NCBI GenBank assembly: GCA_018898455.1
Contig: JAHIJO010000005.1
Location: 6,591-70,590, forward strand
Origin: Verrucomicrobiota bacterium
Lineage (GTDB): Bacteria; Verrucomicrobiota; Kiritimatiellia; JAAZAB01
Reading direction: 5' to 3'
Length of the DNA: 64,000 nt
Notes under the pieces: model-generated
What the model was told of the DNA's origin: nothing
The model's input: only the letters and a program-made list of their open reading frames with translations
Databases searched by the model: none
Made by a program: the position numbers and the translations under genes
In this document: positions 240 to 38,399 of the stretch, piece by piece
Layout of the letters: the number at the start of each line of letters is the position of its first letter
Numbering within the stretch: position 1 is the stretch's first letter

Positions 240-2471
240 TCAGGGGTGACCTGGTCCGGAAACTGAACCAGGCACACATATCCCTGTCCCTAAATTACAG
301 ACAACGGTCTTAACCGGCTGGTTGGGATTTTCTCTATACCAGGTAGCGTCTATATCCAGGCCGCTCATTGAAGCTACTTTGCCGTCCTTACTGGCGGTAA
401 TCTTATAAGTGAAGTTTCTTTCCGAATCGCCTTTTTTTACATAATCCGTAATTATGAAAGTATTATTTCCGTCGGCAGGCAAAGGAGTATGTCCGTCTAT
501 TCCCGTAGTTGCCGAGCGCATATCGTTCGCATCCATCCATGCTCTATACCAATTCGCAGTTTGCCCGCTGGTCGGATGCACCCATTTCCAACCAGTTTTC
601 ATGTTCTCGGCAGGATAGTTTGCGTCGTCCACCTCGTTGGTGACAGTTACCGTTGCCCAAGGGACTGGATCGCCTTTCTTATCCACTACTTTGACATCAA
701 GGTAATATTGACGGCAATATTGAGGTTTCCAGTATTCGCTGATCTCTACATCAATAAACTTGCAGTTGACAAAATTACCGGCGCCTCTTACCCCAAGTTG
801 ACCACAATTAAATACAGTATCATAGAAATATCCGTTTAACTCGCTATAGGTTAGACTAAATGGCGGTATGGCGCTAAGCTGAACATTTTTTATCAGGTAA
901 TAGTCATGGTAGGAAGCCGGAGAGAAACGAATTGCATGGGTGCCGGTTATGTTTTCAATAGTACTATCCTGGATATCTAAATGCCGCAAACTACTTAAAA
1001 ACAGTTCTCTGACATTTTTAATGCTTGATTTTTTCATCACCAATTTCCCGTAGGTTTCAGATATCTGATATTTGTTTACATAATCCATGTGAAGACGTTC
1101 ATGAACAACAGGATATGCTGGGTCGGGTGTCTTGATGACAGAGTTTTCCATAATAAGCGTCCAACCCGGCTTTAGCTGCAATTTCTTCAAATTGCCGGCA
1201 GTTGAGTTAATCGTTAGCGTTTCGTTGGAAAGTGTTAAAGCAGCTCCTCGCCAGAACATCAGGTTCGCATTGCAGATTGCTTTCTTTGTTGTGTCGTTGT
1301 AACTGAATATATCCTGGTTATTGATATCCCTGGCAACCTTGGCCAGGGTATTGCCACAACCTCGGATTATGACCGTACCCGATCTTGAATCATAAGTGTC
1401 CGGAATGTCGGGAAATATTGGCGTATCATATACCCTGACATTATCTATCCAGACCCGGCGTTTATCCGGCTGGCTAAGGTACAATCCCATGGCCGTTGAT
1501 GTGCTCAATTCATCTGACCAATGGCTGGAATACGGTATGTAATCATCATCAATCCACAGATACCAGATGCCGTCAGTATCGTGAATAACTCTCATCTGGT
1601 GCCAATCCCGGCCTATGCCATCATGGCCATCTCCAGCATCTATACGATAATATCCTGAACCAGTCATCGCCGGAGTCCCATAGGTTATCGGACATCGCTC
1701 TCCCTGGGTATTGAAATAATCAAGCCATAAATGTTCATCTGCTGCCTTCTCAAAACGGTAACATCTTCGGCTATAATCCGAGTCGTTCTTAATGTTATTT
1801 AATACCAGATACACATCAATACCCAGGCTGTAATCATCGCCGCCTTCGGAAAATCTGAACTCATATTCCCAGGTGCCATATACATTTGTTGATGATGTAT
1901 CCATCATTGTATATGGCGCTGATGAGCCGAAATTGTGACCAGCCATATCAGGCGAACCTTTTCTCACTGTCCATTCGGGCAATTTTCTGCCCCACGGGTC
2001 GGTCTCTGCCCGGCCAGTGTATTTTCCGTCAGCAAAATAATCAAACACAACAGGCGCTTCTGCTTTATCCAATGTGGATATAACCCATTCCAAATTAGTC
2101 TGCCCACCAGAAGCATTGGATGCTTTGACCTGTATTTCCCAGATACTTTTCCTGTCCGGAACTGTCCACCGGAAACTGTTTGCATTACTCTTTCGGTCAA
2201 CTTTATTGACCAGCCATTGATATTCCACATCTTTATCTGCGGTAATCGAAAAAATAATAGTTTCACCCTGCTTGACTAAATACATCATATCCTGATCATT
2301 GTCTTTATTTTGGATTATTCCACCAGTAGAACTGAAACTAATAATCTTTGGCGCTACTTTCGGGTTTTGTTTCAGATCTGTTCCGCCTACATTGGTACCT
2401 GAGCAGTTACCCAAATTGATGAAAAACATTACCACAACACTTACCATACTTAATAACATTATTGTTTTCAT
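240..2471 (-). CDS. Secreted hypothetical protein with N-terminal signal peptide, possibly right-handed beta-helix / polysaccharide-lyase-like
   Basis: ORF 240..2504. The first ATG is at 2471 (MKTIMLLSMVSVVVMFF..), preceded by GAGGTGG RBS; the 2504 start is TTG. Hydrophobic signal peptide. Middle region has repetitive N/G/V-rich segments (NITGTHAIRF.., VQLSAI.., GNFVNCKFIDVEI) typical of parallel beta-helix folds. No family assigned with certainty. Confidence 0.6.
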   Translation of the reverse strand: MKTIMLLSMVSVVVMFFINLGNCSGTNVGGTDLKQNPKVAPKIISFSSTGGIIQNKDNDQDMMYLVKQGETIIFSITADKDVEYQWLVNKVDRKSNANSFRWTVPDRKSIWEIQVKASNASGGQTNLEWVISTLDKAEAPVVFDYFADGKYTGRAETDPWGRKLPEWTVRKGSPDMAGHNFGSSAPYTMMDTSSTNVYGTWEYEFRFSEGGDDYSLGIDVYLVLNNIKNDSDYSRRCYRFEKAADEHLWLDYFNTQGERCPITYGTPAMTGSGYYRIDAGDGHDGIGRDWHQMRVIHDTDGIWYLWIDDDYIPYSSHWSDELSTSTAMGLYLSQPDKRRVWIDNVRVYDTPIFPDIPDTYDSRSGTVIIRGCGNTLAKVARDINNQDIFSYNDTTKKAICNANLMFWRGAALTLSNETLTINSTAGNLKKLQLKPGWTLIMENSVIKTPDPAYPVVHERLHMDYVNKYQISETYGKLVMKKSSIKNVRELFLSSLRHLDIQDSTIENITGTHAIRFSPASYHDYYLIKNVQLSAIPPFSLTYSELNGYFYDTVFNCGQLGVRGAGNFVNCKFIDVEISEYWKPQYCRQYYLDVKVVDKKGDPVPWATVTVTNEVDDANYPAENMKTGWKWVHPTSGQTANWYRAWMDANDMRSATTGIDGHTPLPADGNNTFIITDYVKKGDSERNFTYKITASKDGKVASMSGLDIDATWYRENPNQPVKTVVCNLGTGICVPGSVSGPGHP

Positions 2472-3114
2472 CCGAGTACCACCTCGCTTTGTTTTTCGAA
2501 CCAACTAACCCGCACAGATCAATTGTCCATTTCCGACTGAAGCTTAACCTGGAAACCTTGGCTGCTTCCGCGGCATCATACTTCAGACACCGCGGCGATG
2601 CCAGCAAGGTAAAGCCCTGCTTAATGCGCGCATCCGGCACGTGGCCGGACTTGGGTTCCAGCGGATTGGCCAGAAAATGACGACTGACAATCTCATGAGC
2701 CATGAACGCCAGCGTCATATGCCGCGTGATTTCATCGCCCGTCACCGCCTGCATTTGACGAAGCAAGTTTTCGATCGCGGCGAAGGCGCGGGGCTTGAAC
2801 AGCAGGGGCAACCCGGCCTGAGCGTCCAACGGATCGCCATTATCAAGCCCCACGCGATAATGAATATTCAGCATCTCGAACGGCAGGTTGAGGTTAAAAT
2901 AGAACTCCACAAAAGGCGGAATTGAAATTACCACGCCTTTTTTCAATGCATAGCGCTGATGATTGATAAACACCGCACCGGTGCCGCGCGTGATATGCAG
3001 CAAGTGAAAGTCGTCATTCACCTGGATGCGGCTTCGTCCGCCTTCCCGATTATGAAAAACCGGACAGAATGAAACAAACTGAAACTTGTGTTTTAGAAGC
3101 AGTTGTTTATTCAT
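2407..3114 (-). CDS. AraC-family-like ligand-binding (cupin) domain protein, apparently lacking the C-terminal HTH (possible remnant)
   Basis: Segment FHLLHITRGTGAVFINHQRYALKKGVVISIPP resembles the AraC N-terminal cupin domain. Only 235 aa with no recognisable double HTH. The 3' end overlaps the next gene by ~65 nt. Confidence 0.4.
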   Translation of the reverse strand: MNKQLLLKHKFQFVSFCPVFHNREGGRSRIQVNDDFHLLHITRGTGAVFINHQRYALKKGVVISIPPFVEFYFNLNLPFEMLNIHYRVGLDNGDPLDAQAGLPLLFKPRAFAAIENLLRQMQAVTGDEITRHMTLAFMAHEIVSRHFLANPLEPKSGHVPDARIKQGFTLLASPRCLKYDAAEAAKVSRLSFSRKWTIDLCGLVGSKNKARWYSDENNNVIKYGKCCGNVFHQFG

Positions 3115-4242: not shown

Positions 4243-4315
4243 CTTCGGCTCGGCCAGAGGCCTAGCCCTACCCGAGGTGACATTCCGAAGGGAGGGCGGG
4301 GCATTTGGCCGAGCC
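4243..4315. promoter_or_regulatory. Structured intergenic element: long-range stem GGCTCGGCCA (4247-4256) / TGGCCGAGCC (4306-4315) enclosing a ~50-nt GC-rich region with further internal pairing (CTTCGG/CCGAAG)
   Basis: Inverted repeats read directly from the sequence between the flavoprotein stop (4239) and the NYN-like gene start (4341). No T-tract follows, so it is not a canonical terminator. Confidence 0.3.
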
Positions 4316-4340
4316 ATCCGCGTATGTCACGAAAATCTCC

Positions 4341-4850
4341 ATGAAAATGAAAAAATGGCTCCTCATTGACGGATACAACCTCATTTTTCAACTGCCCGCC
4401 GGAAGACAGGACATGCCGCCGGATATGGCCGGCAAGCGACAACGCCTGCTTCGAATGCTGGATGATATGGCCGGGGTTCTAGCCGACCGCGTCACGGTGA
4501 TCTTTGATGGACGCTCGGCGGCGCCCGGTGACGCGACGGAGTCTCCGCATGTGGAGATTATTTTTTCGCCCCCCGACAAGACAGCCGATACGGTCATTGA
4601 GCAGTTGGTTTGCGGGACGGAGCATCCCGAGAAAATCCTCGTCGTCACCTCGGATCGCCGCGAAAATGAAACGATCCGAGCCGCGGGCGCTGAGGTAATG
4701 TCCTGCGCGGCATTCCTGGACCACTTGCATCAGGAACGGGAAAACCTGGGTTGGCTGATCCAGCGCCGGACAAGCCGGGCGCCGGCCAATTCCCTCGGGG
4801 ATTTCTTCCCGCCAGTGAAGCTTCAGGATATACCGACGACAGACCGCTGA
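4341..4850 (+). CDS. YacP-like NYN domain protein (PIN-like predicted RNase, COG3688 family)
   Basis: N-terminal KWLLIDGYNLIF.. and later ILVVTSDRRE motifs are characteristic of NYN/YacP (Rae1-like) proteins. First ATG at 4341. Confidence 0.65.
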   Translation: MKMKKWLLIDGYNLIFQLPAGRQDMPPDMAGKRQRLLRMLDDMAGVLADRVTVIFDGRSAAPGDATESPHVEIIFSPPDKTADTVIEQLVCGTEHPEKILVVTSDRRENETIRAAGAEVMSCAAFLDHLHQERENLGWLIQRRTSRAPANSLGDFFPPVKLQDIPTTDR

Positions 4851-4912: not shown

Positions 4913-6190
4913 CTATTTTGACAAACCACCTTTCCCTATCCCATGCTGGCAATGCGGAAAATCGGCGGACTTCCTATCAAGAATTATGGCCGGAACCGTC
5001 TTCCACCCCAGGGTCTTACACGCTTGCAGACGCAAGTGCCCGGCAACAACCTCATATGCGCCGTTAAGCCTCCGCTCAACAACAATAGCCTGAAGAAGCC
5101 CCATTTTGGCAATCCTGGCAGCCATCTCTTTGACCTGTTGGTCTGTTCCCGGGTTCCCCAAGATGCCTGTCGAATCAATGATGAGATTAACGTCAATATC
5201 CGTGGCTTCCGTATCGTTACTTGTCGTGGCATCACCATCCGCACGACGTCCCCCCTGAATGCCCATCCGATATGAATACACAAAGGGGATGGCGAAATCC
5301 ACTTGTGGATTACCCTGAAATTCATCGAAGATTTTCCGGGTAATCTCGTGAACAATCCGCGGACGGTCCATGGCCAAGGTCATATAGCGCAGGCGCATAT
5401 AGACCCCGTAATCGTACAGGTCGGACCGGATATAGGGTTTATGGCCGGTTTCTTTGATCACCTCTCCGGTGACCTCGGTCGCCGCATCCATCAGAATGCG
5501 CTCGGCAATTTTCCAATCCGAATCATACGTGATCCTGACAACCACCTCGTCGAGCACGAAGGGATCCGCCTGCTGGGGGGTGTAATTAATAACCACGTTG
5601 CTGAAGAGCATGGCATTGGGAACAAGGATGTGCCGTCCGGTTGCCTCCTCGGTTCCCACGGTGCCTCCCACCTGGTTAAGCACGGTGTACATCATACCCA
5701 TCTGCTGAACATCGCCAATCAGGCCCAAGGACGGCAACAGGACGCGGTCGCCAAGACGGAACGGGCGCTTGACCGTCACCAGAATCCAAGCCGCCAGACC
5801 GCTGATGGGAGCCTGGAGCGACCAACCCAACAACAGGCCGACAAAAGGCGCCACCGCCACCCAGGAACCCGACAACTTGCCCATAAAGTGGAAAAAGGAC
5901 GCCACGATCATTACCCCCACGCCAAAGCGCAGGAGGGAAGCAACCATGGGTATCTCGCTCGGCGCCCCCCGGTGCACACGAACCTTGATGGTAAACGCCA
6001 GGATGCAGATTTCATAAACCGCCAGCACGGCCGCCGTAAACGCCAGGTAATCGGCGAGCGTCTTATCCTGGGAAAATTTAAAAAAGGAAACGTCAATGTG
6101 GTCCAGCCAGAAAAAGACCACCGCCAGAACCACGAAGACTATCAGCAGACTGATGCGGGTTTTCGTCATAGCAATGTATTTTTTAATCAT
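4913..6190 (-). CDS. Mechanosensitive ion channel (MscS family) with a C-terminal ParB/sulfiredoxin-like domain
   Basis: N-terminal TM helices plus the MscS beta-domain signature (..GDRVLLPSLGLIGDVQQMGMMYTVL..). C-terminal ~70 aa GLLQAIVVERRLNGAYEVVAGHLRLQACKTLGWKTVPAIILD closely match the ParB N-terminal domain consensus (IxVRP..YxxxxGxRRxxAxxxxGxxxxPxxV). Confidence 0.7.
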   Translation of the reverse strand: MIKKYIAMTKTRISLLIVFVVLAVVFFWLDHIDVSFFKFSQDKTLADYLAFTAAVLAVYEICILAFTIKVRVHRGAPSEIPMVASLLRFGVGVMIVASFFHFMGKLSGSWVAVAPFVGLLLGWSLQAPISGLAAWILVTVKRPFRLGDRVLLPSLGLIGDVQQMGMMYTVLNQVGGTVGTEEATGRHILVPNAMLFSNVVINYTPQQADPFVLDEVVVRITYDSDWKIAERILMDAATEVTGEVIKETGHKPYIRSDLYDYGVYMRLRYMTLAMDRPRIVHEITRKIFDEFQGNPQVDFAIPFVYSYRMGIQGGRRADGDATTSNDTEATDIDVNLIIDSTGILGNPGTDQQVKEMAARIAKMGLLQAIVVERRLNGAYEVVAGHLRLQACKTLGWKTVPAIILDRKSADFPHCQHGIGKGGLSK

Positions 6191-9450: not shown

Positions 9451-10677
9451 TTATCGCGCCTGATTCGTCAACACCTGGGACATATTCCAAATGGGAAGCA
9501 GAATAGCCAGAGCCAGGAACAGGACGCCGACGCCGATGACGAGGGTGATGACGGGCTCGATCATCGTGGTTAAGTTCTTCATGGTATAATTGATTTCCAT
9601 GTCATAAAAATCAACAACCTGGTCCAGCATATCGTCCAAACTTCCGGTTTTCTCACCCACGGCAATCAGACTGGTCACCAAGGGCGGGAAGATGGGCATC
9701 TCATTGAAAAAACCATCGGCAATGGTATTGCCATCCTGGATGGTCTGCCTGACGTTGACCAGGAGCTGCTTGAAATACGCGTTGGCCACAACGGATGGCG
9801 CAATTTCCAGCGCCCGCAAGACCGGCACGCCGTTCCGCACCAGCATGGCGAAAATCCGTCCGAACCGGGCCACGACAATCTTGGTATAGACCGGACCCAG
9901 GAGATACAGGTTAAATTTCATCTTATCAATCATCAGCCGGATCGACTTATTCCTCAACAACATCCACCACGCAACTCCGCCGCTAATAACCAGGACAAGC
10001 AGGATCGGCCAGTAATGTTGAAACAGGTTATTGCCGGTGACCAGAATGCGGGTCGGCAGAGGGAGTGGAACGGTGGATTTCGCGAAAAACACCGTGAAGC
10101 GGGGAAGGACAAAGGCCACCATGATGATCATGGCAAGAATCAACGCGATAACGACCATGATCGGATAGCGCAGGGCCGCCTTGATGGCCGTCCGGATTTC
10201 CAACTCACGCTCCATCCACTGAGCGAGACTGAACAACGCTTTCACCAGATCGCCGCCGCTTTCGCCGGAGACGACGATGTTCACATATTCCGGGGTGAAA
10301 ACGCGCGGGAATTCAGCCAGGGACTCCGACAAGCTTGACCCGGCGGTCAGACTCCGGCTCACATCGATAAGCACCTGTTTAAACCCCCTATTCTCGGCCT
10401 GCTCCCGCAGAATCTCAATGGATTGGACAATGGGAATGCCCGCCTTCAGCATAGTGGCCACCTGGCGGGTAAACAGAATGATATCTTCAGCCCGGATCCG
10501 CCCGAACAGCATGCGGAACAGCGCGTTTTCCATCGACTCGGTGGCTTGACGGATTTCGATCGGAATGAGCTTATCTTCCGTCAACTGATCATGGGCCGCA
10601 TTACTGTCTTTGGCCTGGATTGTCCCTTCGACTATCCGTCCGGTCAGGTTGCGCGCGCGATAGGCGTAATTTCTCAT
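9451..10677 (-). CDS. gspF: Type II secretion system / type IV pilus platform protein GspF/PilC family
   Basis: ~400 aa with the duplicated GspF domain organisation, three TM segments and motifs such as SGESGGDLV.. and [11 protein letters not shown] typical of GspF/PilC. Confidence 0.85.
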
Positions 10678-10729
10678 GGGGAACCGCCAGGATCAGGAAT
10701 AGCATCCCTGCCGTCCGACTCGATGGAGA

Positions 10730-10993
10730 CTACCAGATCAACAGGACAATAAAAATGACGGAAAGCAGCAGCGTGATCAAGCCGATGATTTTATGCCAGG
10801 CCAGCAATTGCGAGTCAATATCATGGGTCCGATTCAATTGTTTCTCCAAAGATTCCGTTGAAATCCACCTCTTGAATATGCTGTTGGCCCGAATGAGCAT
10901 GTTCGGCCAGATCAACAGGAATGCCGTCATGATCAAACATAAGACGGCGAACCAGAGCACAAGCAGCTTATAAGGCATCTCTACTGCAATCAT
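10730..10993 (-). CDS. Small two-TM membrane protein, hypothetical
   Basis: 87 aa with two hydrophobic helices. Sits between the ExeA-like and GspF genes in the same orientation. No family recognised. Confidence 0.4.
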   Translation of the reverse strand: MIAVEMPYKLLVLWFAVLCLIMTAFLLIWPNMLIRANSIFKRWISTESLEKQLNRTHDIDSQLLAWHKIIGLITLLLSVIFIVLLIW

Positions 10994-11062
10994 CGTGAAA
11001 TCCCCCTTCCCTATGTTGTTTCCGATTTCTCTGCCACGACAGCGCCTTGGGCGCCAAAAGCT

Positions 11063-11881
11063 TCAAACAACTCCGAATTTTTCAGCGGCCTCCAGTACCA
11101 GATTCGTATCAATCCGCCCTGATTTTTGAGCATAGCCCAAGGCCAGGCTGACATCGCACAGGGTGTTGATGCGCCGGGGAATGCCGCCCGAATTCCGGTG
11201 AATGAGATTCAACGCCTCTTCCTGGAACAGCGGATCGGCTCTTCCGGCGACAGCGAGCCGGGATTGAATATACCTGGCCGTATCGGCGCTGTCAAAATGA
11301 TGCAAGGTGCAGGTGATGGGGATGCGCTGGGCAAACTGCTTCAAACCCGCCACGCGCTCGGCCAATTCCAGGTGCCCCAGGAAAAGCAAAGTCAGCAAAA
11401 ATTCATCATGGCTTTGAACATTCAGCAACAGACGCAACATTTCAAGCACCGCTTCATTATCAAGCATGTGGGCCTCGTCAATGATGAGCACCGTGTGCTT
11501 GCCGTCCCGGCGATTTTCCTGCAACGCCTTTTCGATGATCTCCAGCATGGCGTCCGCCACAAGATTAGAACGGTCCGCTGACAACGGGGTCTCCGTCATG
11601 GCCCGCGCTATGCTCCGCAGCAGATCAAGGGGGGCCATTCCCGGCTGAGCTATACATGATTTCGAGACATTGGATTTGCCAAGTTGCTGGAGCAGGACGC
11701 GGGACAACAGCGTTTTGCCGCAGCCATAGGCGCCGGTCAGCAGTGCGGCGCCCATGTTTTCAGTGACGGCATACGTCAACTTCATCAGCGCTTCATCGTG
11801 CTGAACCGAGTGGTAAAAAAACTTAGGGTCCGGCGTGTTGTGAAACGGACGGTTATTCAATTTCCAATATTCTTCGTACAT
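11063..11881 (-). CDS. ExeA/GspA/MshM-family AAA ATPase
   Basis: N-terminus ..NRPFHNTPDPKFFYHSVQHDEALMKLTYAV.. followed by Walker A LLTGAYGCGKT and Walker B VLIIDEAHML. Matches ExeA/MshM architecture. Confidence 0.8.
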   Translation of the reverse strand: MYEEYWKLNNRPFHNTPDPKFFYHSVQHDEALMKLTYAVTENMGAALLTGAYGCGKTLLSRVLLQQLGKSNVSKSCIAQPGMAPLDLLRSIARAMTETPLSADRSNLVADAMLEIIEKALQENRRDGKHTVLIIDEAHMLDNEAVLEMLRLLLNVQSHDEFLLTLLFLGHLELAERVAGLKQFAQRIPITCTLHHFDSADTARYIQSRLAVAGRADPLFQEEALNLIHRNSGGIPRRINTLCDVSLALGYAQKSGRIDTNLVLEAAEKFGVV

Positions 11882-11897
11882 GGCATCCTCGGGCAGG

Positions 11898-13811
11898 TTA
11901 CCGGTTTTTTTTCGCCAGCCAGCTTGTCATCTGCTTCCGGTAATCATCAAGATCCAAGCTGAGGCTTTCCGCCTTGACCGCCTCCATGGCCGGTTCGGCT
12001 TCCCCGGCCTCCGGTTGTTCTTTCGGAAGGGACCCCGGCGGCAGGGAAATTTCCGCGACATTTTCCAGGGCGGCAGTGCGCAGCACTTCTTCGAGGGTCG
12101 TGATGCCCCGCTCAACCTTCTCGATGCCGTCGTCCAGCATGCTGACCATGCCGTCCTTGCGCGCCTGCGCCCGCAAGGCGGCGGTTGTTTGTCCGGCGGC
12201 AATTATATCGGCCAGATCCAAAGTCACGGGCATCAATTCGAAAACGGCAATGCGCCCCACGTAGCCGGTATCGCGGCACTTGGAACATCCTTTCCCCCTC
12301 CACATCTTGCCGGGTAGCGACAAACCGGAGGCCGTCAGCCGCTGGCGCAGGCCGTCGGGAACGGCAAAAGGTTCCCGGCATTCCTCACAGATCCGCCGCA
12401 CCAGGCGCTGGGCCATCGCGCCCACCAGCGAGGAGGATACCAGGAACGCCTCGATGTTCATATTGATGAGCCGGGTAACTGCGCCGGGCGCGTCATTGGT
12501 ATGAATTGTCGAAAACACCAGGTGCCCCGTCAGGGCTGCGCGCACCGACAATTGCGCGGTTTCCGGATCCCGCACTTCGCCCACCATGATGACATCGGGG
12601 TCCTGTCTCAGGATGCTGCGGAGCGCGGACGCGAAGGTCAATCCCGCTTTTTCATTCACCTGGATTTGAGTAACCAGGTCCATGCGGCGTTCCACCGGGT
12701 CCTCGATGGTGATGATGTTGCGTTCCGGGGATTTTGCCTTGGACAGCATGGCATAGAGCGTGGTGGACTTGCCGCTGCCGGTCGGTCCGGTGACCACAAC
12801 CATACCATAGGGACGTCGAATCATCCGTTCGACCTGGGGTAGAAGTCTGTCGGAAATGCCCATGCTTTCCAGGGGAATCGCCATGGCCCGCGTGTCGAAA
12901 AGGCGGATCGCCATGTTCTCGCCGTTGGTGGTGGGCATGCTGGAAACACGGGCCTCCACGGTGCGCTTGTCTATGGTGATCTGGAAATGACCGTCCTGCG
13001 GAATGCGGCTTTCCGCGATGTCCATGCTGCTGATGACCTTGATGCGGGAAATGATAAAGGGATGGAGATATTTCGGCGGCGGCGGAATATCATAGAGGAC
13101 GCCGTCAATACGGAAACGGACCTTTAATTGTCCCTCGCCAGGATCGATGTGAATATCGCTGGCCCGGTCGCGCACGGCCTGGGCCACGATCATATCCACC
13201 AGGCGGCTGACCGGCGATTTACTGCTCTGCAGGATGCTTTCCTGAGATTTCACCGCCATCGTTCCCTGTAAGGAATCCTCACCCATTTGATCCAGCAATT
13301 CCTTGAATTCCTCGTGCCCGGAATACACCCGGTTGATCATTTCATGAATATCCTTCCGGGCAGCCAGGCACGGTTCAATCGTGAACTTGCCCAGTGCCGT
13401 CGCCAGCCGATCGAGAACGGTGATGTCGCTGGGATCGGCCAACGCAACCGTGAGTGAGTCGCCGATGGCAAACAAGGGGAATACTTCCAGTTCACGCGCC
13501 AGCTTCTCGTCAATCAGGGAAACCACGGCTTGATTATAAATGTAGGTTTCGAGATCGACGAAAGGCACGCCGAAAATGCCGGCCAGTTCCTCGTAAGCCG
13601 TCTGCTTGGACAATAGATCCAGATTGACAAGAACCTCGACCAGAAGTTCGCGGGTTTCCCTGCTGACCGCCATGGCCTTTTTCAGGGTCTCACTCGTCAA
13701 AAGCCCCTTGGCCATGAGGCGCTTGGCCAAGTCCTCGTTCGTCTGCGCCAACATCTGCTGGCTGAGATCCTGATTCATATCAATCCTCGCTGACACATCC
13801 CGCCCGTTCAA
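11898..13811 (-). CDS. gspE: Type II secretion / type IV pilus assembly ATPase GspE/PilB family with N-terminal GSPII_E_N domain
   Basis: Walker A VVVTGPTGSGKSTT, Asp/His boxes, C-terminal CxxC..CxxC zinc motif (GCSKCRDTGY..). N-terminal T2SSE_N-like domain. Has an Ala/Glu-rich C-terminal extension. Confidence 0.9.
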   Translation of the reverse strand: MNGRDVSARIDMNQDLSQQMLAQTNEDLAKRLMAKGLLTSETLKKAMAVSRETRELLVEVLVNLDLLSKQTAYEELAGIFGVPFVDLETYIYNQAVVSLIDEKLARELEVFPLFAIGDSLTVALADPSDITVLDRLATALGKFTIEPCLAARKDIHEMINRVYSGHEEFKELLDQMGEDSLQGTMAVKSQESILQSSKSPVSRLVDMIVAQAVRDRASDIHIDPGEGQLKVRFRIDGVLYDIPPPPKYLHPFIISRIKVISSMDIAESRIPQDGHFQITIDKRTVEARVSSMPTTNGENMAIRLFDTRAMAIPLESMGISDRLLPQVERMIRRPYGMVVVTGPTGSGKSTTLYAMLSKAKSPERNIITIEDPVERRMDLVTQIQVNEKAGLTFASALRSILRQDPDVIMVGEVRDPETAQLSVRAALTGHLVFSTIHTNDAPGAVTRLINMNIEAFLVSSSLVGAMAQRLVRRICEECREPFAVPDGLRQRLTASGLSLPGKMWRGKGCSKCRDTGYVGRIAVFELMPVTLDLADIIAAGQTTAALRAQARKDGMVSMLDDGIEKVERGITTLEEVLRTAALENVAEISLPPGSLPKEQPEAGEAEPAMEAVKAESLSLDLDDYRKQMTSWLAKKNR

Positions 13812-14231: not shown

Positions 14232-15767
14232 TCAGCGGCCTTTTTCCTCGATGGGTTCCAAATAGGTTTTCGGTTCAAGGTTCAGCAGAATTCGGATCTT
14301 ATCCAGCAGGTCGTTGGGCGTAAACGGCTTGGCCAGAACTTCATCCGCCCCATCCCGTACCACTTCGGTCAGCGAATGGACATCTCCTGATATGATCAAA
14401 ACCTTGCTGTTATGTTGGCGCGATTGCTGCCGCAAGGAAAGCAACACCTGTTCCCCGCCCACTTCCGCCAGATGCATATCGAGAATGATAAGATTCGGCT
14501 TGAATTCTCCAGCGATGATCAGCGAATCGAGTCCGCTCAACGTTGACTTGACCTCCAGCTTCAGGTCGGAATACCGAAGCACTTTTTCAATCATCCGGAC
14601 AACAAGTTCCTCGTCGTCAACAATGAGGATCCGGGAGGGCAGTTCCTTATCGTACACCGGGAGGGTGAATGAAAAGCAACTCCCCTTGCCAATCGTGCTG
14701 TCAACCGAAATACAGCCGCCATTGAGTTCCACCAGGCTCTTGGCAATTTTCAATCCAAGACCGGTACCCTTGGTGCCCGGACCGTCCTTGCGATCGATCT
14801 GGACGAAGGCCTCAAATATCTTTTCCAATGAATCCCGGGGAATTCCGGGTCCCGTATCTTCAACATCAATGCGCAGGAAGCGGCCTTCCTCTTTGGTTCG
14901 AATGCGAAGGGTTCCCTTCTCCGGCGTAAATTTATGGGCGTTCCCGATCAGGTTCGTCAGAATATTATGGACGCTTGTCACGTCGCAATGCGCCATTGGC
15001 AGATTATCAGGAACATCCAGCACCAGCGTCTGTTTTTTGGTTTGGCAGACGGGGGTAAAATCATTGCGAAACTGCATCAGCAAGGACGTCAAATCCGCTT
15101 TGGTTCTGTGCAATTCCGCCTTACCGGCTTCAATGCGGGCCAAGTCCAGTATCCGGCTGATCAGGTCGGTGAGCTTGTCGCAATTGCGAAGAGCCGCATC
15201 GAGGCATTTGCACTGTTTTTCATTCAGCGGACCTACGGTCTCGTCCCGGACAAGCGACACAAATTCCCGGATGATCGCCAACGGGGTCCGGATCTCATGC
15301 GAAACTTCAGCTACAAATTGGGATTTGGTCTCGTTTAATTCGCGCAAACGTTTCAAGGCCTCCTGGCTGTTCTTCTTCGCGCTATGGCGCTCAATGGCAT
15401 AGCGCAGGGCATGAACCAGCGCGCCAATATCCCCCTGCCCCTTGATCAAGTAATCCTGCGCGCCTTCCTTGACCAGTTGGGAGGCCAGGGCTTCATCCCC
15501 GACACACGTTAAAACGATAATCGGGATTTCGGGGAATCGCCCGTATACTTTCCTGAATGTTTCCAGTCCACGGCTGTCCGGTAGAATCAGGTCCAGCATG
15601 ACCACCTCAGCCTGGCTTTCGGCCAGCCATGAGAGCGCCGCATCGAGTCGGCCAACCGACGCAATATTGAAATTGGTATCTTTGGTATGAAGCAGTTGTT
15701 CCTTGATCAATACCACTTCATCCGGATTATCCTCAACCAGCAGAATATTGATGCGTTTGGATTTCAT
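14232..15767 (-). CDS. Hybrid sensor histidine kinase with N- and C-terminal receiver domains (REC-HisKA-HATPase-REC)
   Basis: N-terminal REC (INILLVEDNPDE..MLDLILPD), HisKA H-box (VSHEIRTPL), N/G1/G2 boxes (NLIGNAHKFT, DTGPGIP, GTGLGL), C-terminal REC (RILIVDDEELV..DMHL). Confidence 0.85.
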   Translation of the reverse strand: MKSKRINILLVEDNPDEVVLIKEQLLHTKDTNFNIASVGRLDAALSWLAESQAEVVMLDLILPDSRGLETFRKVYGRFPEIPIIVLTCVGDEALASQLVKEGAQDYLIKGQGDIGALVHALRYAIERHSAKKNSQEALKRLRELNETKSQFVAEVSHEIRTPLAIIREFVSLVRDETVGPLNEKQCKCLDAALRNCDKLTDLISRILDLARIEAGKAELHRTKADLTSLLMQFRNDFTPVCQTKKQTLVLDVPDNLPMAHCDVTSVHNILTNLIGNAHKFTPEKGTLRIRTKEEGRFLRIDVEDTGPGIPRDSLEKIFEAFVQIDRKDGPGTKGTGLGLKIAKSLVELNGGCISVDSTIGKGSCFSFTLPVYDKELPSRILIVDDEELVVRMIEKVLRYSDLKLEVKSTLSGLDSLIIAGEFKPNLIILDMHLAEVGGEQVLLSLRQQSRQHNSKVLIISGDVHSLTEVVRDGADEVLAKPFTPNDLLDKIRILLNLEPKTYLEPIEEKGR

Positions 15768-15968
15768 ATCTTGATGTACCTTCAAACCAGTAAACTGATC
15801 CGGACGATATCAACCGCCTTTACCCCGATCGAGACAACACGCTGGGGACTCAACCATACCGCAACCCAACGTTAGAAATGCCTTAAAATAACCCCATTAC
15901 ACAAAGGGTGTCAAGGCGAATCACGACGGTCGTAATGAGTCCCTATCCCATGGATTGCTGATAGCCGC

Positions 15969-17678: not shown

Positions 17679-17711
17679 AACTTTGCCAAACAAAGTTCTT
17701 TGCGTTAGATT
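17679..17711 (+). promoter_or_regulatory. Promoter TTGCCA-17-TAGATT overlapped by the same operator AACTTTG-N5-CAAAGTTCTTTGCG (site 2); predicted leaderless start
   Basis: -35 at 17683-88, -10 at 17706-11. The predicted transcription start coincides with ATG 17719, which has no RBS. The operator copy is identical in spacing to site 1. Confidence 0.45.
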
Positions 17712-17718
17712 GAATCAC

Positions 17719-18921
17719 ATGAAAACAGTTCAAACCTTACAAGTGCTATCCGCAACACTCCTGGCGATCGGACTGGTGGTCACCCTACCCCTGCTTGGAA
17801 TCATGGCGACCGGCCTGCCGATCGGACACTATCTCGAATTTCCCCCTCACACCCATTACGTGGAACACGCCGGTTTTTCATGGTCCGTATTCGCCGGACT
17901 GGCCGCGTTTATTCTAATTGTCATCCTGCCTTTCATTATCCGGATCCTGTGCGCCAACCGGATGACGAAGACGAAAATGAAGCCGCTTATGGAGTCAACC
18001 GTCGCCCCGGCAGAGCCCCCTTTGCTGGGAAGCTACGGAGGGCCATGGTGGGGCGGATACAATTGCAATCAAAACGCCCGCCGTTTTCCAGTTTGGGGCT
18101 GGATTGGCATCGCCGGGGGAATCGGGGCCTGGATTCTCGCCTGGTCCCGTTTTGATTGGTTCGCACCCTGGCAGGCCTTCACGTTCAGTCCGTTGTGGTT
18201 CAGCTATATCGTCATCGTCAACGCCCTGACTCACCGGCGCACCGGCCAATGCATGCTGACCCAGAGACCCGTTTTCCTGCTGATGCTCTTTGTGTTCAGC
18301 GCCGCCTTCTGGTGGTTATTCGAATACCTGAACCGATTCGTCCAGAACTGGTACTACCTCGGGATCGGTTCCCTGACCCCCTTGGAATATTTTCTGTTTG
18401 CCACCCTCCCGTTTTCCACCGTGCTCCCGGCGGTAATGGGCACCTTCCAGCTCCTGGCCACCTACCCGCGACTTTCCAACGGACTGACCGGAATTTTTGT
18501 CATGCCCCACATCCAATCGCGCTTCGGTGCTCTCATTGTTCTTACATTGTCGGCGGGCGGATTGGCAGGTATTGGCTTGTGGCCGGACTACCTGTTTCCA
18601 TTACTCTGGCTGGCGCCGCTGGGAATACTGGCATCCCTCCAAACACTGACCGGACGGACGTCACTGTTTGCCGACCTGGTCCGCGGCGACTGGCGGCGGA
18701 TCGTCCTGCTGGCGCTGGCCGCGCTGATTTGCGGCTTCTTCTGGGAGATGTGGAATTTTTACAGCCTCGCCAAGTGGGTCTATGCCGTGCCATTCGTTGA
18801 CCGCTTCCACATTTTTGAAATGCCGGTACTCGGCTATGCCGGCTATCTACTCTTCGGCCTGGAATGCGCGCTGATTGCGGATTTACTGTGCGGTCGGCGA
18901 CAGATCGAGGAAAAACCTTGA
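17719..18921 (+). CDS. Large polytopic membrane protein, hypothetical (about 10 TM, Trp/aromatic-rich)
   Basis: First ATG at 17719; the 17683 start is TTG inside the operator. Highly hydrophobic. No family recognised. Stop overlaps the downstream start (TTGA). Confidence 0.6.
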   Translation: MKTVQTLQVLSATLLAIGLVVTLPLLGIMATGLPIGHYLEFPPHTHYVEHAGFSWSVFAGLAAFILIVILPFIIRILCANRMTKTKMKPLMESTVAPAEPPLLGSYGGPWWGGYNCNQNARRFPVWGWIGIAGGIGAWILAWSRFDWFAPWQAFTFSPLWFSYIVIVNALTHRRTGQCMLTQRPVFLLMLFVFSAAFWWLFEYLNRFVQNWYYLGIGSLTPLEYFLFATLPFSTVLPAVMGTFQLLATYPRLSNGLTGIFVMPHIQSRFGALIVLTLSAGGLAGIGLWPDYLFPLLWLAPLGILASLQTLTGRTSLFADLVRGDWRRIVLLALAALICGFFWEMWNFYSLAKWVYAVPFVDRFHIFEMPVLGYAGYLLFGLECALIADLLCGRRQIEEKP

Positions 18922-23449: not shown

Positions 23450-25060
23450 ATGAATGCACCATCACATCATCCGTATTCACGGGCGGGAATCTGTGTTTGG
23501 ATCAATGGGCTGATCGTTCTATTCCTCGCCGTCTATTTCCTGATCCTGCCGGGGTTCATTTTGGTACACGACCTGATGGACCCCAACCTCCGCCAGCCGG
23601 GTGGTATCCCCCGGATGGCCTGGCGGGTGCATGCCAGCTTGACCCCGCACTACGAACACTGGGCGCGGGCCCGCGTCGCCTCCGGCAGAGCCGGACATCT
23701 CCAGCTAAATGACGTGCCCAGCACGGAATGGCCGATGTTCGGATCGGTTTTCTATCTTGCCGCCACAGAAAATCTTCAACGCGCGTGGGACAAAGGTGAG
23801 CATGGTTCCCGTATTGCTCCGAAAGTGTATGCCCGGGCCGCAATTGAAGCGGCGGCGGAACTCATCCTGGACCCCATCCACCACACGTGGGTTCGCACGC
23901 ATTGGGGACCGAACTACCTGCACCATGAAAATGTGTTCTTCCGGGCCATGATTATCCAAGGCCTCACCTGCCGCCAAAACCTGATCGGTGACGGCAAATA
24001 CCTGGACATCCTACGCGACCAGGTGGAAACACTTGCGGACGATCTCGACCGTTCGCCATACGGACTGCTCCACGATTATCCCGGAGAATGCTACCCAGTC
24101 GATGTATTGGCGGCGATCACCATGATTCGCCGGGCGGATCCTGTGCTGGGCACGGATCATTCGGCATTTGCCGGCCGGGCCAGGCGCGGATTCCAGGGAG
24201 CACGGCTTGATGCGCGCGGATTGCCACCCTACGTGGCCGAGCCTACTACCGGCGGACATGACGGTATCTCACGGGGTATCGGCAATTCATACATTTGTAT
24301 CTACGCCCCGGAACTTTATCCGGATTTGGCCCGAGTCTGGTATGACGCTTATCAACGCTACTTCTGGCAGGAGCGAATAGGCGCGGCCGGGTTTCGCGAA
24401 TATCCCAACGATCTTCCCGGCTACGAATTATTTTTCGATGTGGATTCCGGCCCTGTCATTTTCGGATTCAGCCCGGCGGGGAACGCTTATGGCTTGGCGG
24501 CGGCGCGGGTCAACGGCCGTTTCGATCAGGCGTGGCCGCTGGCCTCACAGGTACTGGCGGCTTGCTGGCATCTGCCCAACGGCAGTCTGCTGGGACCGCG
24601 GATGTTGTCCAATGCCGCGCACGCCCCCTACCTGGGTGAAGCCAATATGCTTTTCCTGCTGACACAGAACCCGATCCCAGCCCAACCGATCCGCCTTGGC
24701 GGGCACATGCCGCCGCTGGTGTATGTTGGATTCATGTTTTATTTCGGATTGGGGACACTAGTGATTGGCTTGACAACCCGTAAACTTTTCGCCTGGAAAA
24801 ACACAGGTGAAATCGTTCACGTGCCTTTTGCTCGGATTCAACTCAGTCTATGGCTGCTCTTAATGCTTGCCGGGATCATCCTGATGATATGCATCAGCCC
24901 CGGCATCGGCATGTTACCCATTATTACCGCCCAGCTTCTGCCGCGCTTCGGTAAGGTCAAAAGGAATAGCTCACGAAATGGTCGGATGGCTTCCGTTGTA
25001 GCGGCCGTTCGACAGAACGGCAATCCACGGTTCTTCCCGCTAGGAGCGGGACAAACTTAA
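23450..25060 (+). CDS. Hypothetical membrane protein (N-terminal TM, large extracytoplasmic domain, C-terminal TM bundle)
   Basis: Single long ORF with hydrophobic segments at both ends. No family recognised. Confidence 0.55.
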   Translation: MNAPSHHPYSRAGICVWINGLIVLFLAVYFLILPGFILVHDLMDPNLRQPGGIPRMAWRVHASLTPHYEHWARARVASGRAGHLQLNDVPSTEWPMFGSVFYLAATENLQRAWDKGEHGSRIAPKVYARAAIEAAAELILDPIHHTWVRTHWGPNYLHHENVFFRAMIIQGLTCRQNLIGDGKYLDILRDQVETLADDLDRSPYGLLHDYPGECYPVDVLAAITMIRRADPVLGTDHSAFAGRARRGFQGARLDARGLPPYVAEPTTGGHDGISRGIGNSYICIYAPELYPDLARVWYDAYQRYFWQERIGAAGFREYPNDLPGYELFFDVDSGPVIFGFSPAGNAYGLAAARVNGRFDQAWPLASQVLAACWHLPNGSLLGPRMLSNAAHAPYLGEANMLFLLTQNPIPAQPIRLGGHMPPLVYVGFMFYFGLGTLVIGLTTRKLFAWKNTGEIVHVPFARIQLSLWLLLMLAGIILMICISPGIGMLPIITAQLLPRFGKVKRNSSRNGRMASVVAAVRQNGNPRFFPLGAGQT

Positions 25061-36548: not shown

Positions 36549-38399
36549 TTATGAAGATTGCAGTTTAACAGGCCATTCGAAGCTATTTAAACCCGGGTGG
36601 ACATCGAGAAACATCAACGTAGCGGGATAACCGGCAATACCGTCTAGGATAACCGTTCCTGACTCCGGAACCGAATAGCCCCAAAGACATACAGGCAGAT
36701 GTGACAATTCTCGTGGCGCATTGACAACAAACGAAACCGCCGCGCCGCGCATGGTCTCCTGTAGAGTTGCGGCAAAGCCGCTTAGATCCACCATCGCCAT
36801 CTGCCGGGTTTCCGGCATGTTCTGCACACGGCGGTAGTCATACCACCAGAAGGGCAGCCACGGCGCACCCTTATGTTGCGGCTGGATGGTCACCCGCGCA
36901 CAAGGTGCAATGTCGGCATTTTGGGCGGGCTCATCGATAATGGGACGTTTTAAAAATGCGGCCTTCCCATTCTCGCCACACCAAACCAGTGTTTCGGGAA
37001 ATACCTCTGGTTTGCCCAGATGCGGACCAAACTGATCAAAACCCAGTTTGTCCTTCATCACCTGCCGCACAGCCTGCGGCGCCGTCAAATCGGCCACGAT
37101 ATCATGGACAACATAGCTCTGATCAGGCGTCGTAGCCAGGTGGCGTTGAAAGTATTTGGCCACATCGGCTTTATGGGAAAAGATCACCTGCCCGGAACGG
37201 CCCCGGTTGCCAAAATACTGGAGTATCATACGATTGCCGGCCACAATCCCCGGACATTCATTATCGCCCATTTCGACCGGGCCACACAATACCACCGGCA
37301 CTGCGGCGCGGTTCGCCGCGATGGAGGCATACATTTCTTCCTGGAATTCAATGTACTTGTCCAGCGTCCGGCTGACATCAATGGACGGTCCGCCTGCAAG
37401 CGGATCGGTTTGCCGCCAACAGCGGATGAACATCGCCATGTCATTGCTGTGATCCGTATACCCGGCATGGCTCAGCACGGGGTGCCGCAAATCGGCCGGA
37501 AATATGAGCACTGGGGAAGGCCATTCATCGCGGTGGCCCGCCTTTCTGAAATCCTCCCGGCGGACGTAATAGGGGAAATTGGACATTCCGAAATGATACT
37601 GCCTCCAGCCGTAGTCCCAACGGGAGCCGCCATCGTTGAAATCGTGTTCACTGAATACACCGTCGATTCCAACCAATTCCTCCAGGCTGCAGGCCTCCAC
37701 CAACGTATTGTTGGGGGTGTAATGGCCGACCATCTCGAACGGCGGCAGATTCCATCTTTGCCAGTGCTCCTGCAGTGCCTGCAGGAATTTCCGACATTCC
37801 CCCACGGACAGTCCATGGGCGGTAGGATTGGGCAAAGGACCAAAAACCTTCCCGCCGCGGAGTCCTTTGAGTTCCGGTACAAAGAACTCCGCCAGGGCAA
37901 AATCCAGAAAAGGGTAGACCTTGCACGACGTCGACCTGTGGTGGTTTTTCAAATTGTCAATGGCATACCAGGTGCGGCTTAGGAATTCATCCCCGGCGGT
38001 ACAGATTTCGATATCCGCCGGCAGATGGTATCTTTGGAACTCCGGTCCGTAGAAATCATGAAGATTGCCGCAGCCATGCCACGCCGAGGTAAAGAACACC
38101 CACATCGTCTGGACGGCAATCCCCGGCGCCCAGACGCCAAAATACGCCGTCCTCTCGTCCGCGCCCTTCCCGATGCCGGCATAGTAGTTTCCGGGCGCAG
38201 AAGGCGTATAGGACGCCTGGGATTTATAACCATCCGAAGCCTGCTCCCATAGAAGCGGCAAGGAACACCGCTGGGTTCCGTTCTTCTCGAGGTAACGCTC
38301 GTATATGATGAGTGAGTCAGGCCCGGGTTTGTCGGCTTCAATAAGGAAGGAAAGGGTTTCACCGACGTTGACCAGTCCGCCGCTTGTTTGGATTCGCAT
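36549..38399 (-). CDS. Hypothetical protein (616 aa), no signal peptide, possible carbohydrate-active enzyme
   Basis: Single long ORF in an operon-like array with URO-D-like and oxidoreductase genes. No family recognised. Confidence 0.5.
   Translation of the reverse strand: MRIQTSGGLVNVGETLSFLIEADKPGPDSLIIYERYLEKNGTQRCSLPLLWEQASDGYKSQASYTPSAPGNYYAGIGKGADERTAYFGVWAPGIAVQTMWVFFTSAWHGCGNLHDFYGPEFQRYHLPADIEICTAGDEFLSRTWYAIDNLKNHHRSTSCKVYPFLDFALAEFFVPELKGLRGGKVFGPLPNPTAHGLSVGECRKFLQALQEHWQRWNLPPFEMVGHYTPNNTLVEACSLEELVGIDGVFSEHDFNDGGSRWDYGWRQYHFGMSNFPYYVRREDFRKAGHRDEWPSPVLIFPADLRHPVLSHAGYTDHSNDMAMFIRCWRQTDPLAGGPSIDVSRTLDKYIEFQEEMYASIAANRAAVPVVLCGPVEMGDNECPGIVAGNRMILQYFGNRGRSGQVIFSHKADVAKYFQRHLATTPDQSYVVHDIVADLTAPQAVRQVMKDKLGFDQFGPHLGKPEVFPETLVWCGENGKAAFLKRPIIDEPAQNADIAPCARVTIQPQHKGAPWLPFWWYDYRRVQNMPETRQMAMVDLSGFAATLQETMRGAAVSFVVNAPRELSHLPVCLWGYSVPESGTVILDGIAGYPATLMFLDVHPGLNSFEWPVKLQSS

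Follow-up and report, generated by a model that had tools for sequence, protein, structure and literature searches.

A conserved fusion of an MscS-type channel to a ParB-like domain in Verrucomicrobiota and other phyla, and its possible role in nucleotide sensing

The stretch of Verrucomicrobiota DNA analysed here (contig JAHIJO010000005.1; 64,000 nucleotides, called the window below) contains a minus-strand gene encoding an MscS-type mechanosensitive channel that carries a ParB-like domain at its C-terminus. The gene is one uninterrupted open reading frame (ORF) of 425 codons plus a stop codon, with no internal stop codon (Table 1). A preliminary description of this DNA, made from the sequence alone, had proposed that the product is an MscS-type channel fused to a ParB/sulfiredoxin-like C-terminal domain, and this was borne out: the Pfam families PF00924 and PF02195 are both matched within the 425-aa ORF, and the Foldseek and BLASTP comparisons described below agree. 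A database search returned a protein 100% identical to the window protein (P0001), which comes from a Verrucomicrobia metagenome-assembled genome (MAG) and is labelled 'mechanosensitive ion channel [Verrucomicrobia bacterium]'. The fusion proteins in the databases carry the automatic annotations 'mechanosensitive ion channel' or 'ParB N-terminal domain-containing protein'. There is no other ParB-like or MscS-like ORF anywhere in the 64-kb window.

Table 1. Features of the fusion gene, its product and neighbouring genes, in window coordinates (AF2, AlphaFold2; pLDDT, predicted local distance difference test; EcMscS, Escherichia coli MscS)
Feature	Position	Strand	Basis
MscS-ParB_N fusion protein, complete ORF	4913..6190	-	ORF call and Pfam PF00924 and PF02195
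Membrane region at the N-terminus, aa 1-108, with three hydrophobic helices (~aa 5-37, 45-72, 79-104)	5867..6190	-	AF2 helices, hydropathy
Pore-lining helix TM3 with the RPFRxGD motif, aa 109-145 (GLLLGWSLQAPISGLAAWILVTVKRPFRLGD)	5756..5866	-	ungapped BLASTP to EcMscS residues 96-134
W123, invariant Trp at the EcMscS L109 hydrophobic-gate position	5822-5824	-	ungapped alignment
A127-P128, Ala-Pro instead of the EcMscS kink glycine G113	5807-5812	-	ungapped alignment
W135, second invariant Trp, instead of EcMscS G121	5786-5788	-	ungapped alignment
MscS beta-domain, aa 146-210	5561..5755	-	PF00924 at aa 129-204, invariant columns
Invariant beta-domain loop QVGG[TSA][VI]G[ST]E[ED], aa 173-182	5645-5674	-	invariant columns, alignment to EcMscS
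Putative alpha-beta domain of the MscS cytoplasmic cage, with the last strand DFAIP[FY]VYSYR, aa 211-308	5267..5560	-	PF21082 (below cut-off), Foldseek
Variable linker, aa 309-328, predicted disordered	5207..5266	-	pLDDT, family alignment
Minimal ParB-CTPase-fold (ParB/Srx) domain, aa 329-405 (~77 aa)	4976..5206	-	PF02195, profile against PDB, AF2, Foldseek
Loop of Box I (C-motif), G364-L-L-Q-A368; GLLQP is the family consensus	5087..5101	-	codons in sequence, family alignment
Box II / P-motif G384-H-L-R387 (GxxR)	5030..5041	-	codons in sequence, family alignment
C391, Cys directly behind the alanine of the P-motif helix, in 97% of 81 family members	5018-5020	-	family alignment
Non-conserved C-terminal tail, aa 406-425	4916..4975	-	pLDDT, family alignment
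'GIGKGGL', aa 416-422, near-match to the ParA-binding motif (L/F/I)G(K/R)G(L/F/I)	4925-4945	-	motif of PMC12704722
Two sigma-70-like promoter matches (consensus matches only), upstream of the start codon	6217..6304	-	consensus scan of the intergenic region
YacP-like NYN-domain gene, convergent with the channel gene	4305-4850	+	ORF/domain annotation
T2SSF gene	9451-10677	-	type II secretion / type IV pilus-like set
AAA_22 ATPase gene	11063-11881	-	type II secretion / type IV pilus-like set
T2SSE gene with MshEN domain	11898-13811	-	type II secretion / type IV pilus-like set
Hybrid histidine kinase gene, next after the pilus-like set	14232-15785

The layout of the protein was taken from hydropathy and from a full-length AF2 model, which was calculated as a monomer with an input alignment of 30 sequences. 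Four hydrophobic helices are predicted, of which the last is TM3 (aa 110-141). The three before it were placed by AF2 at residues 2-31, 45-72 and 79-103, so the fusion protein has one more N-terminal helix before the pore helix than E. coli MscS. After TM3 the model has a beta-domain (aa 149-191), an alpha-beta domain (aa 211-305), a linker, a compact domain (aa 329-405) and a tail. PF00924 (MS_channel_2nd) matches aa 129-204 with 39.5 bits (cut-off 20.2, E=6e-10), and PF21082 (MS_channel_3rd) gives a weak match to aa 215-292 whose 15.8 bits lie under the 21-bit cut-off. The best partial match among the NCBIfam models for aa 83-236 is MscS PRK10334. BLASTP aligned aa 83-235 to residues 69-207 of E. 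coli MscS with 28% identity over 153 residues, and this alignment is free of gaps through TM3 (aa 83-150 to EcMscS 69-136). When the full-length model was compared with known structures by Foldseek, about 260-300 columns aligned to EcMscS, YnaI, YbiO, MscK and MSL1/10 (E ~1e-13), and the alignments to the MscS and YnaI structures take in the region of the alpha-beta domain. In this search no solved structure joined an MscS core with a ParB-fold domain; the C-terminal domain was aligned separately to Noc. The channel is presumably heptameric, by analogy with MscS.

The features held in common with these MscS-like channels are a TM3 with its glutamine and the RPFRxGD motif, the beta-domain and, on the structural alignment, a probable alpha-beta cage. 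The fusion protein differs from them in having a tryptophan at L109, Ala-Pro at G113, a 9-residue QVGGxxGxEE insertion and the ParB-fold C-terminus. Among 30 relatives the invariant residues of TM3, counted together with the RPFRxGD motif, are G118, G122, W123, Q126, P128, R142, P143, F144, R145 and D148. At the predicted gate, L119 aligns to EcMscS L105 and W123 to L109, which would keep the constriction hydrophobic but make it a variant of the known gate. These substitutions suggest that the pore and gate of the fusion clade may behave differently from those of EcMscS. The loop of the beta-domain that begins with QVGG is 9 residues longer than in EcMscS, was modelled with low pLDDT, and could be a candidate ligand or ion site. 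The QVGG loop is a signature of the whole MscS clade, as it is also present in the relatives that lack ParB and in the archaeal relatives.

The ParB_N family (PF02195) matches aa 350-405 with 41.5 bits (gathering score 26.3, E=1.4e-10), which disposes of the possibility, raised in the preliminary description, that the C-terminus would have no match to a ParB profile. The peptide GLLQAIVVERRLNGAYEVVAGHLRLQACKTLGWKTVPAIILD is found at aa 364-405 of the window protein. The ParB domain had been placed in the last ~70 residues; it is C-terminal as proposed, but it spans ~77 aa (329-405) and is followed by a 20-aa tail that is not conserved. Its elements are, in order, a beta strand, the Box I helix and loop, two strands, the Box II helix and a final strand. 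The best partial match among the NCBIfam models for the C-terminus is Noc TIGR04285 (49.4, cut-off 315), and TIGR00180 scored 33.6 on the window protein (cut-off 58.45). A profile of the domain, built from 20 family members and compared with the PDB, matched Noc 7nfu (E=3e-21) and Myxococcus xanthus ParB 7bnk (3e-16), followed at a distance by sulfiredoxin (Srx, 5e-8), SbnI (1.5e-6), PadC 6ryk (1e-4) and SerK (0.02). Structure prediction, which had been proposed as a check, gave the same answer. The core of the isolated domain was modelled with a pLDDT of ~90, and the best Foldseek matches of this model were Noc, KorB and ParB-CTPgammaS (TM score ~0.65), with a probability of 1.00 against Noc, KorB, ParB, Srx and PadC and further matches to ParB bound to cytidine diphosphate, SbnI and SerK. 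These profile and structural matches demonstrate that the C-terminal module is a ParB/Srx fold, nearest to Noc and chromosomal ParB and farther from sulfiredoxin.

The sequence motifs of the domain were examined in 81 distinct family members, to which all conservation figures refer. In Box I a helix (aa 349-363) leads into the loop G364-L-L-Q-(P/A)368, in which G364 is conserved in 97%, the leucine in 93%, Q367 in 96% and P368 in 98% of the sequences. The same type of loop occurs in proteins that bind cytidine triphosphate (CTP), whose loops include the GLLQS type (PMC12704722). In Box II the sequence GHLRLQA had been described as a degenerate form of the GERRxRA arginine motif. The glutamate and the first arginine are indeed replaced, by H, R, Q or D and by L, M, Q or K, respectively, but the motif is not decaying, as its GxxRxxA core is kept (G384 100%, R387 96%, A390 97%). 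In the hidden Markov model alignment R387 corresponds to the last arginine of the Noc/ParB GERR motif, which is R89 in Noc, and the R89A substitution in Noc abolished CTP binding (PMC8429893). Box III (ENxxR), which serves Mg2+ binding and hydrolysis, is absent because the protein ends after its variable 20-aa tail; the Pfam match stops at position 79 of the 95 in the profile. A Box III mutant of Noc, N121S, kept weaker CTP binding and lost hydrolysis (PMC8429893). Additionally, non-canonical ParB-like proteins often lack Box III, and their binding of nucleoside triphosphates (NTPs) requires the Box II arginine (PMC12704722). Thus the binding motifs (Box I and Box II) are kept in the fusion and the hydrolysis elements (Box III and the GERR glutamate) are gone. 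Neither a helix-turn-helix (HTH) DNA-binding domain nor a C-terminal dimerisation domain was found in the Pfam and NCBIfam scans, which gave no PF17762 match. The near-invariant positions of the ParB core are I360, G364, L365, Q367, P368, Y379, G384, R387, A390, C391, L394, G395, W396 and P400. The cysteine at 391, where V, S or A stands in Noc and ParB, could be structural or redox-related. The linker (aa 304-326) and the tail (aa 407-425) were both modelled with pLDDT below 50.

The mean pairwise identity within the family is 71% in TM3, 72% in the beta-domain and 64% in the alpha-beta domain, and it falls to 47% in the ParB core (aa 349-405), 26% in the N-terminal membrane region, 18% in the linker and 10% in the tail. 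When the ParB core was compared with relatives that are 71-80% identical, the proportion of differing nonsynonymous sites (pN) was 0.12-0.20 and that of synonymous sites (pS) 0.68-0.88. Since synonymous sites are saturated in most pairs, the statement is confined to pN being far below pS; the sole dN/dS estimate that could be computed for the core is 0.077. These values indicate purifying selection on the ParB core.

The preliminary description considered the fusion unusual. It is unstudied, but it is widespread. A database search, which had also been proposed, gave 1244 significant matches, and nearly all of the top 120 have both PF00924 and PF02195 in a protein of ~400 aa. In a scan of one genome per species, at least 186 GTDB species, nearly all represented by MAGs, were found to encode relatives. 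They belong to eight or more phyla and include Verrucomicrobiota, Planctomycetota/Brocadiia, Chloroflexota (Anaerolineae), Lentisphaerota/Victivallales, Armatimonadota, Bacillota/Clostridia, Latescibacterota and Handelsmanbacteria, as well as two archaeal MAGs. Both domains lie in one uninterrupted ORF at 83 of the 85 loci that were fetched, and these loci are independent, so the C-terminal region is not derived from a frameshifted separate gene, as the preliminary description had allowed it might be. The fusion is therefore real, and its single-ORF form is retained in many phyla. The genes around it are not kept. Neighbours were entirely different at six loci from other phyla, and when all ORFs of at least 90 aa from the 85 loci were clustered no conserved partner gene emerged: apart from shadow ORFs and generic families (GFO/IDH/MocA oxidoreductases, histidine kinases), no cluster was seen in more than 13 loci. 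The fusion gene is thus a stand-alone, chromosomal unit whose protein is self-contained, as is expected of a sensor-effector fusion. Membership of a defence system was considered and rejected. PADLOC gave a single weak match, between the ParB region and a ParB-MTase model (E=3.5e-4), and the neighbourhoods in the window and at the other loci inspected are housekeeping and variable, with no defence-island setting.

The closest parallel in design is found in bCNG (bacterial cyclic nucleotide-gated) channels, in which an MscS core is likewise followed by a C-terminal cytoplasmic ligand-binding domain. The analogy is one of design only. The bCNG channels use a cyclic nucleoside monophosphate (cNMP)-binding domain and cAMP or cGMP, where the fusion has a ParB-CTPase fold and presumably an NTP, and the window protein has no match to cNMP_binding (PF00027) at E<=1. 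The bCNG channels are mostly cyanobacterial (PMC13591265), whereas the fusion family occurs in MAG phyla such as Verrucomicrobiota and Planctomycetota. A September 2026 review treats bCNG channels as specialised MscS-like channels in which the ligand's part in gating is unsettled; they are the sole MscS class with a C-terminal ligand-binding domain that it describes, and ParB is not mentioned (PMC13591265). On the side of the ParB folds, the best match is to the N-domain of Noc and chromosomal ParB (34-36% identity), with which the fusion has the GLLQP Box I and the R89-type arginine in common. It differs from them in lacking the GERR glutamate and first arginine, Box III (the region of Noc N121), the HTH, the dimerisation domain and the N-terminal peptide that targets ParA or the membrane. 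PadC and the non-canonical ParB-CTPase-fold fusions resemble it in being orphan ParB folds joined to lineage-specific domains (PMC12704722). Kaljevic et al. (PNAS 2025) highlighted HTH, HNH, methyltransferase, CBS, DUF3850 and similar fusion partners; neither the article itself nor the supplements examined name MscS, a mechanosensitive protein or a channel as a partner (PMC12704722). Many of the fusions in that study lie on mobile elements, whereas the MscS-ParB family is chromosomal and highly conserved. In sulfiredoxin the catalytic cysteine sits in GCHR; the corresponding motif of the fusion is GHLR, and cysteine is not among the four commonest residues at that place.

A literature search for ParB or sulfiredoxin together with mechanosensitive or MscS gave one relevant report, a preprint on Staphylococcus aureus, in which parBL is co-transcribed with mscS and co-expression of the two lowers intracellular K+ and cyclic di-AMP (bioRxiv 10.64898/2026.05.29.728642). 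ParBL (SAUSA300_0361) is annotated there as a putative transcriptional regulator with undefined biochemistry. The S. aureus proteins are encoded by two separate genes rather than one fused ORF, and they nevertheless link a ParB-like protein to MscS functionally. This operon may be a split counterpart of the fusion. The MscS-ParB architecture is thus automatically annotated in databases and functionally undescribed in the literature searched.

We tentatively favour the reading that the ParB-fold domain is a tethered regulatory module that binds but does not hydrolyse a nucleotide. The preliminary description had suggested a nucleotide-dependent role, and this appears to be the best-supported part of its interpretation because conservation within the domain is highest in the base-contacting loop of Box I and at the phosphate-contacting GxxR arginine of Box II. 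The functional association of parBL with mscS in S. aureus is independent evidence in the same direction. The last strand of the cage would run through a flexible linker of ~20 residues into the minimal ParB-CTPase-fold domain, placing the ParB folds, seven to a channel if it assembles as MscS does, as tethered nucleotide sensors beneath the cytoplasmic vestibule. These domains would bind an NTP, probably without hydrolysis of the ParB type. From the Noc/ParB-like Box I loop CTP is a first guess for the ligand, with the caution that sequence does not predict specificity. If the domains dock or pair in response to the ligand, this could then modulate gating, conductance through the portals of the cage or clustering of channels, so that the release of solutes would be coupled to the nucleotide or energy state of the cell, a logic like that of the bCNG channels. 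Several points weigh against this reading. The usual ParB switch is a pairwise engagement of N-domains, which is not easily transferred to an odd-numbered heptamer. The full-length AF2 model has no confident docking of the domain to the cage (predicted TM score 0.37, disordered linker), and the replacement of the GERR glutamate and first arginine together with the absence of Box III means that affinity for a triphosphate could be lower. Furthermore, when 28 ParB-fold proteins were purified, 17 of them failed to bind any NTP in vitro, so conserved motifs are no guarantee of binding, and the ParB folds that do bind use CTP, ATP or GTP with a specificity that neither sequence nor AlphaFold3 docking predicts (PMC12704722). 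A more far-reaching version, in which this would be the first ion channel regulated by a ParB module, with CTP or another NTP on the seven folds controlling MscS opening, inactivation or clustering and with S. aureus parBL-mscS as its split version, is more doubtful.

Other readings of the same domain were weighed. It may instead be an adaptor or scaffold in the manner of PadC, that is, a protein-protein interaction module that positions or anchors the channel and leaves the pore unregulated. Such a module might recruit a ParA/MinD-type ATPase or the N-domain of a canonical ParB or Noc, or cross-link neighbouring channels, with the outcome that the channel is positioned or a partition or nucleoid complex is anchored at the membrane. 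The resemblance to N-domains of Noc and chromosomal ParB, which self-engage, and the match to PadC are in keeping with this, PadC, Srx and SerK all use the fold without switch behaviour (PMC12704722), and seven flexibly tethered copies would suit recruitment by avidity. We consider it unlikely, as the 85 loci have no conserved ParA, ParB or other partner gene in the vicinity and the domain lacks the helices after the core, which form a large part of the surface used in ParB N-engagement. It also has no N-terminal ParA-activating peptide, and the likeness of the tail (IGKGGL) to the ParA-binding motif is probably due to chance because the match is inexact and the tail is not conserved in relatives. 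Somewhat less probable again is that the fold has lost nucleotide binding and serves as a ligand-free structural appendage that stabilises the oligomer or caps or filters the bottom of the cage. The lost GERR residues and missing Box III would be explained, orthologues without ParB exist, and many ParB-fold proteins do not bind NTPs in vitro (PMC12704722). However, a domain kept for structure would not be expected to have its best-conserved residues in the Box I loop and the Box II glycine and arginine rather than in a generic hydrophobic core, and the long, disordered and variable linker speaks against a rigid cap.

The preliminary description had also offered DNA-dependent gating or tethering of the nucleoid, with the domain binding DNA and linking the channel to the chromosome, and this found no support here. 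Only the family name speaks for it, together with the fact that the closest relative, Noc, bridges DNA and membrane (PMC8429893). Noc and ParB bind DNA through the HTH, which is absent here along with the dimerisation domain; the protein ends ~20 aa past the last strand of the fold, the convergent NYN/YacP gene ends at 4850 and therefore leaves no space for more ParB domains, and the domain has no net charge (8 K/R and 8 D/E). The reading is improbable, and the same grade applies to an enzymatic domain with a substrate in or near the channel, be it a sulfiredoxin-like ATP-dependent reductase, a kinase like SerK or SbnI or a ParB-like nuclease. The profile matches to Srx, SbnI and SerK and the near-invariant C391 are compatible with an enzyme, but the similarity to Noc and ParB is better by 13 or more orders of magnitude, the catalytic cysteine of Srx sits within a motif that reads differently here, and the second C-terminal domain that SerK and SbnI need is lacking. 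That the fusion is an artefact, a frameshift, assembly error or miscalled gene that joins an MscS gene to a ParB-like neighbour, is extremely improbable. Nothing was found in its favour, and it is contradicted by the continuous ORFs from independent assemblies and phyla, by the purifying selection on the ParB core, by the matching G+C content of the gene (54%) and the whole window (55%), and by the absence of a separate ParB-like ORF beside the two orthologues that lack ParB.

To our knowledge, the processes so far linked to CTP-dependent ParB switches centre on DNA (segregation, nucleoid occlusion and transcription, for example), and MscS-like channels with ligand-binding C-termini are known to us only from the poorly understood bCNG group. 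The architecture extends two known kinds of protein, the MscS-like channels with accessory domains and the ParB-CTPase-fold fusions. If the favoured reading of a tethered nucleotide-binding module is correct, this conserved, widespread and self-contained fusion would bring the ParB-CTPase fold into membrane transport and offer MscS research a second model, and a genetically simple one, of how a ligand modulates a mechanosensitive pore, and control by NTPs would tie the release of osmolytes or ions directly to nucleotide pools. The fusion could also act as a 'Rosetta stone' for a direct partnership of ParB-like proteins and MscS, which was seen genetically but left unexplained in the 2026 S. 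aureus study. It is a candidate for the control of mechanosensitive channels by nucleotides that can be tested directly on a soluble domain of ~100 aa. The family was probably overlooked because its members come almost entirely from uncultured anaerobic lineages.

The C-terminus varies among the relatives. Two orthologues without ParB (L058 13-1071 and L083 3887-4930), which are 52-55% identical, end ~15 residues past the final strand of the cage ('...YSYRSGEK'), and no ParB-like ORF is present in their fetched flanks. In four archaeal relatives of ~520 aa from Thermoproteota/Bathyarchaeia (P0052, P0060, P0071 and P0091) the cytoplasmic beta and alpha-beta domains are tandemly duplicated, and a C-terminal zinc ribbon stands where the bacterial proteins have ParB_N. 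These variants mark the C-terminus as a site for accessory modules outside the channel core. A divergent subgroup of MscS-ParB_N fusions (P0126 and P0127, 340-347 aa) is shorter in its membrane region. In P0126 the QVGG loop is missing, although the ParB module is almost identical to the planctomycete type (GRFRLLACK), and the subgroup could have arisen by domain shuffling or by a second fusion event.

Relatives of the module that stand alone were searched for in a library of 1.84 billion representatives. The main family forms a handful of clusters at 50% identity in this library, and the next tier consists of proteins of canonical ParB/Noc size, which suggests that the ParB module of the fusion is a distinct, tight clade. 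Proteins of ~90-115 aa that looked like stand-alone modules (P0121, P0122, P0124 and P0133) were rejected as fragments of the fusion; several fragments of this size begin within the '...IPYVYSYR' strand or the linker. Matches of ~340 aa were likewise rejected as separate relatives, being truncated, chimeric or divergent fusions. Among the nearest relatives that are not channels, P0142 and P0150 (572-613 aa) have the arrangement ParB_N-HTH-ParB_N, in which two ParB_N domains flank a ParB HTH.

Upstream of the start codon of the channel gene in the window lies an intergenic region of 176 bp, and the scan for sigma-70-like promoters gave 3 matches in the region examined (1.0 +/- 1.3 expected), 2 of which lie upstream of the start codon. 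Downstream, the stop codons of the channel gene and the convergent NYN/YacP gene are ~60 bp apart, and no terminator-like hairpin was detected between these two genes or near the channel gene. An FMN (flavin mononucleotide) reductase, a GT2 glycosyltransferase and epimerases are encoded around it. No tRNA and no match to an Rfam family was found in the whole window. Pfam gave no match for five long ORFs (412-754 aa), at E<=0.001 for 240-2504(-) and at E<=1e-5 for 17683-18921(+), 23450-25060(+), 36549-38399(-) and 41535-43514(-). A minus-strand set of genes resembling those of type II secretion and type IV pili occupies positions 9451-13811, and the hybrid histidine kinase gene follows it (Table 1).

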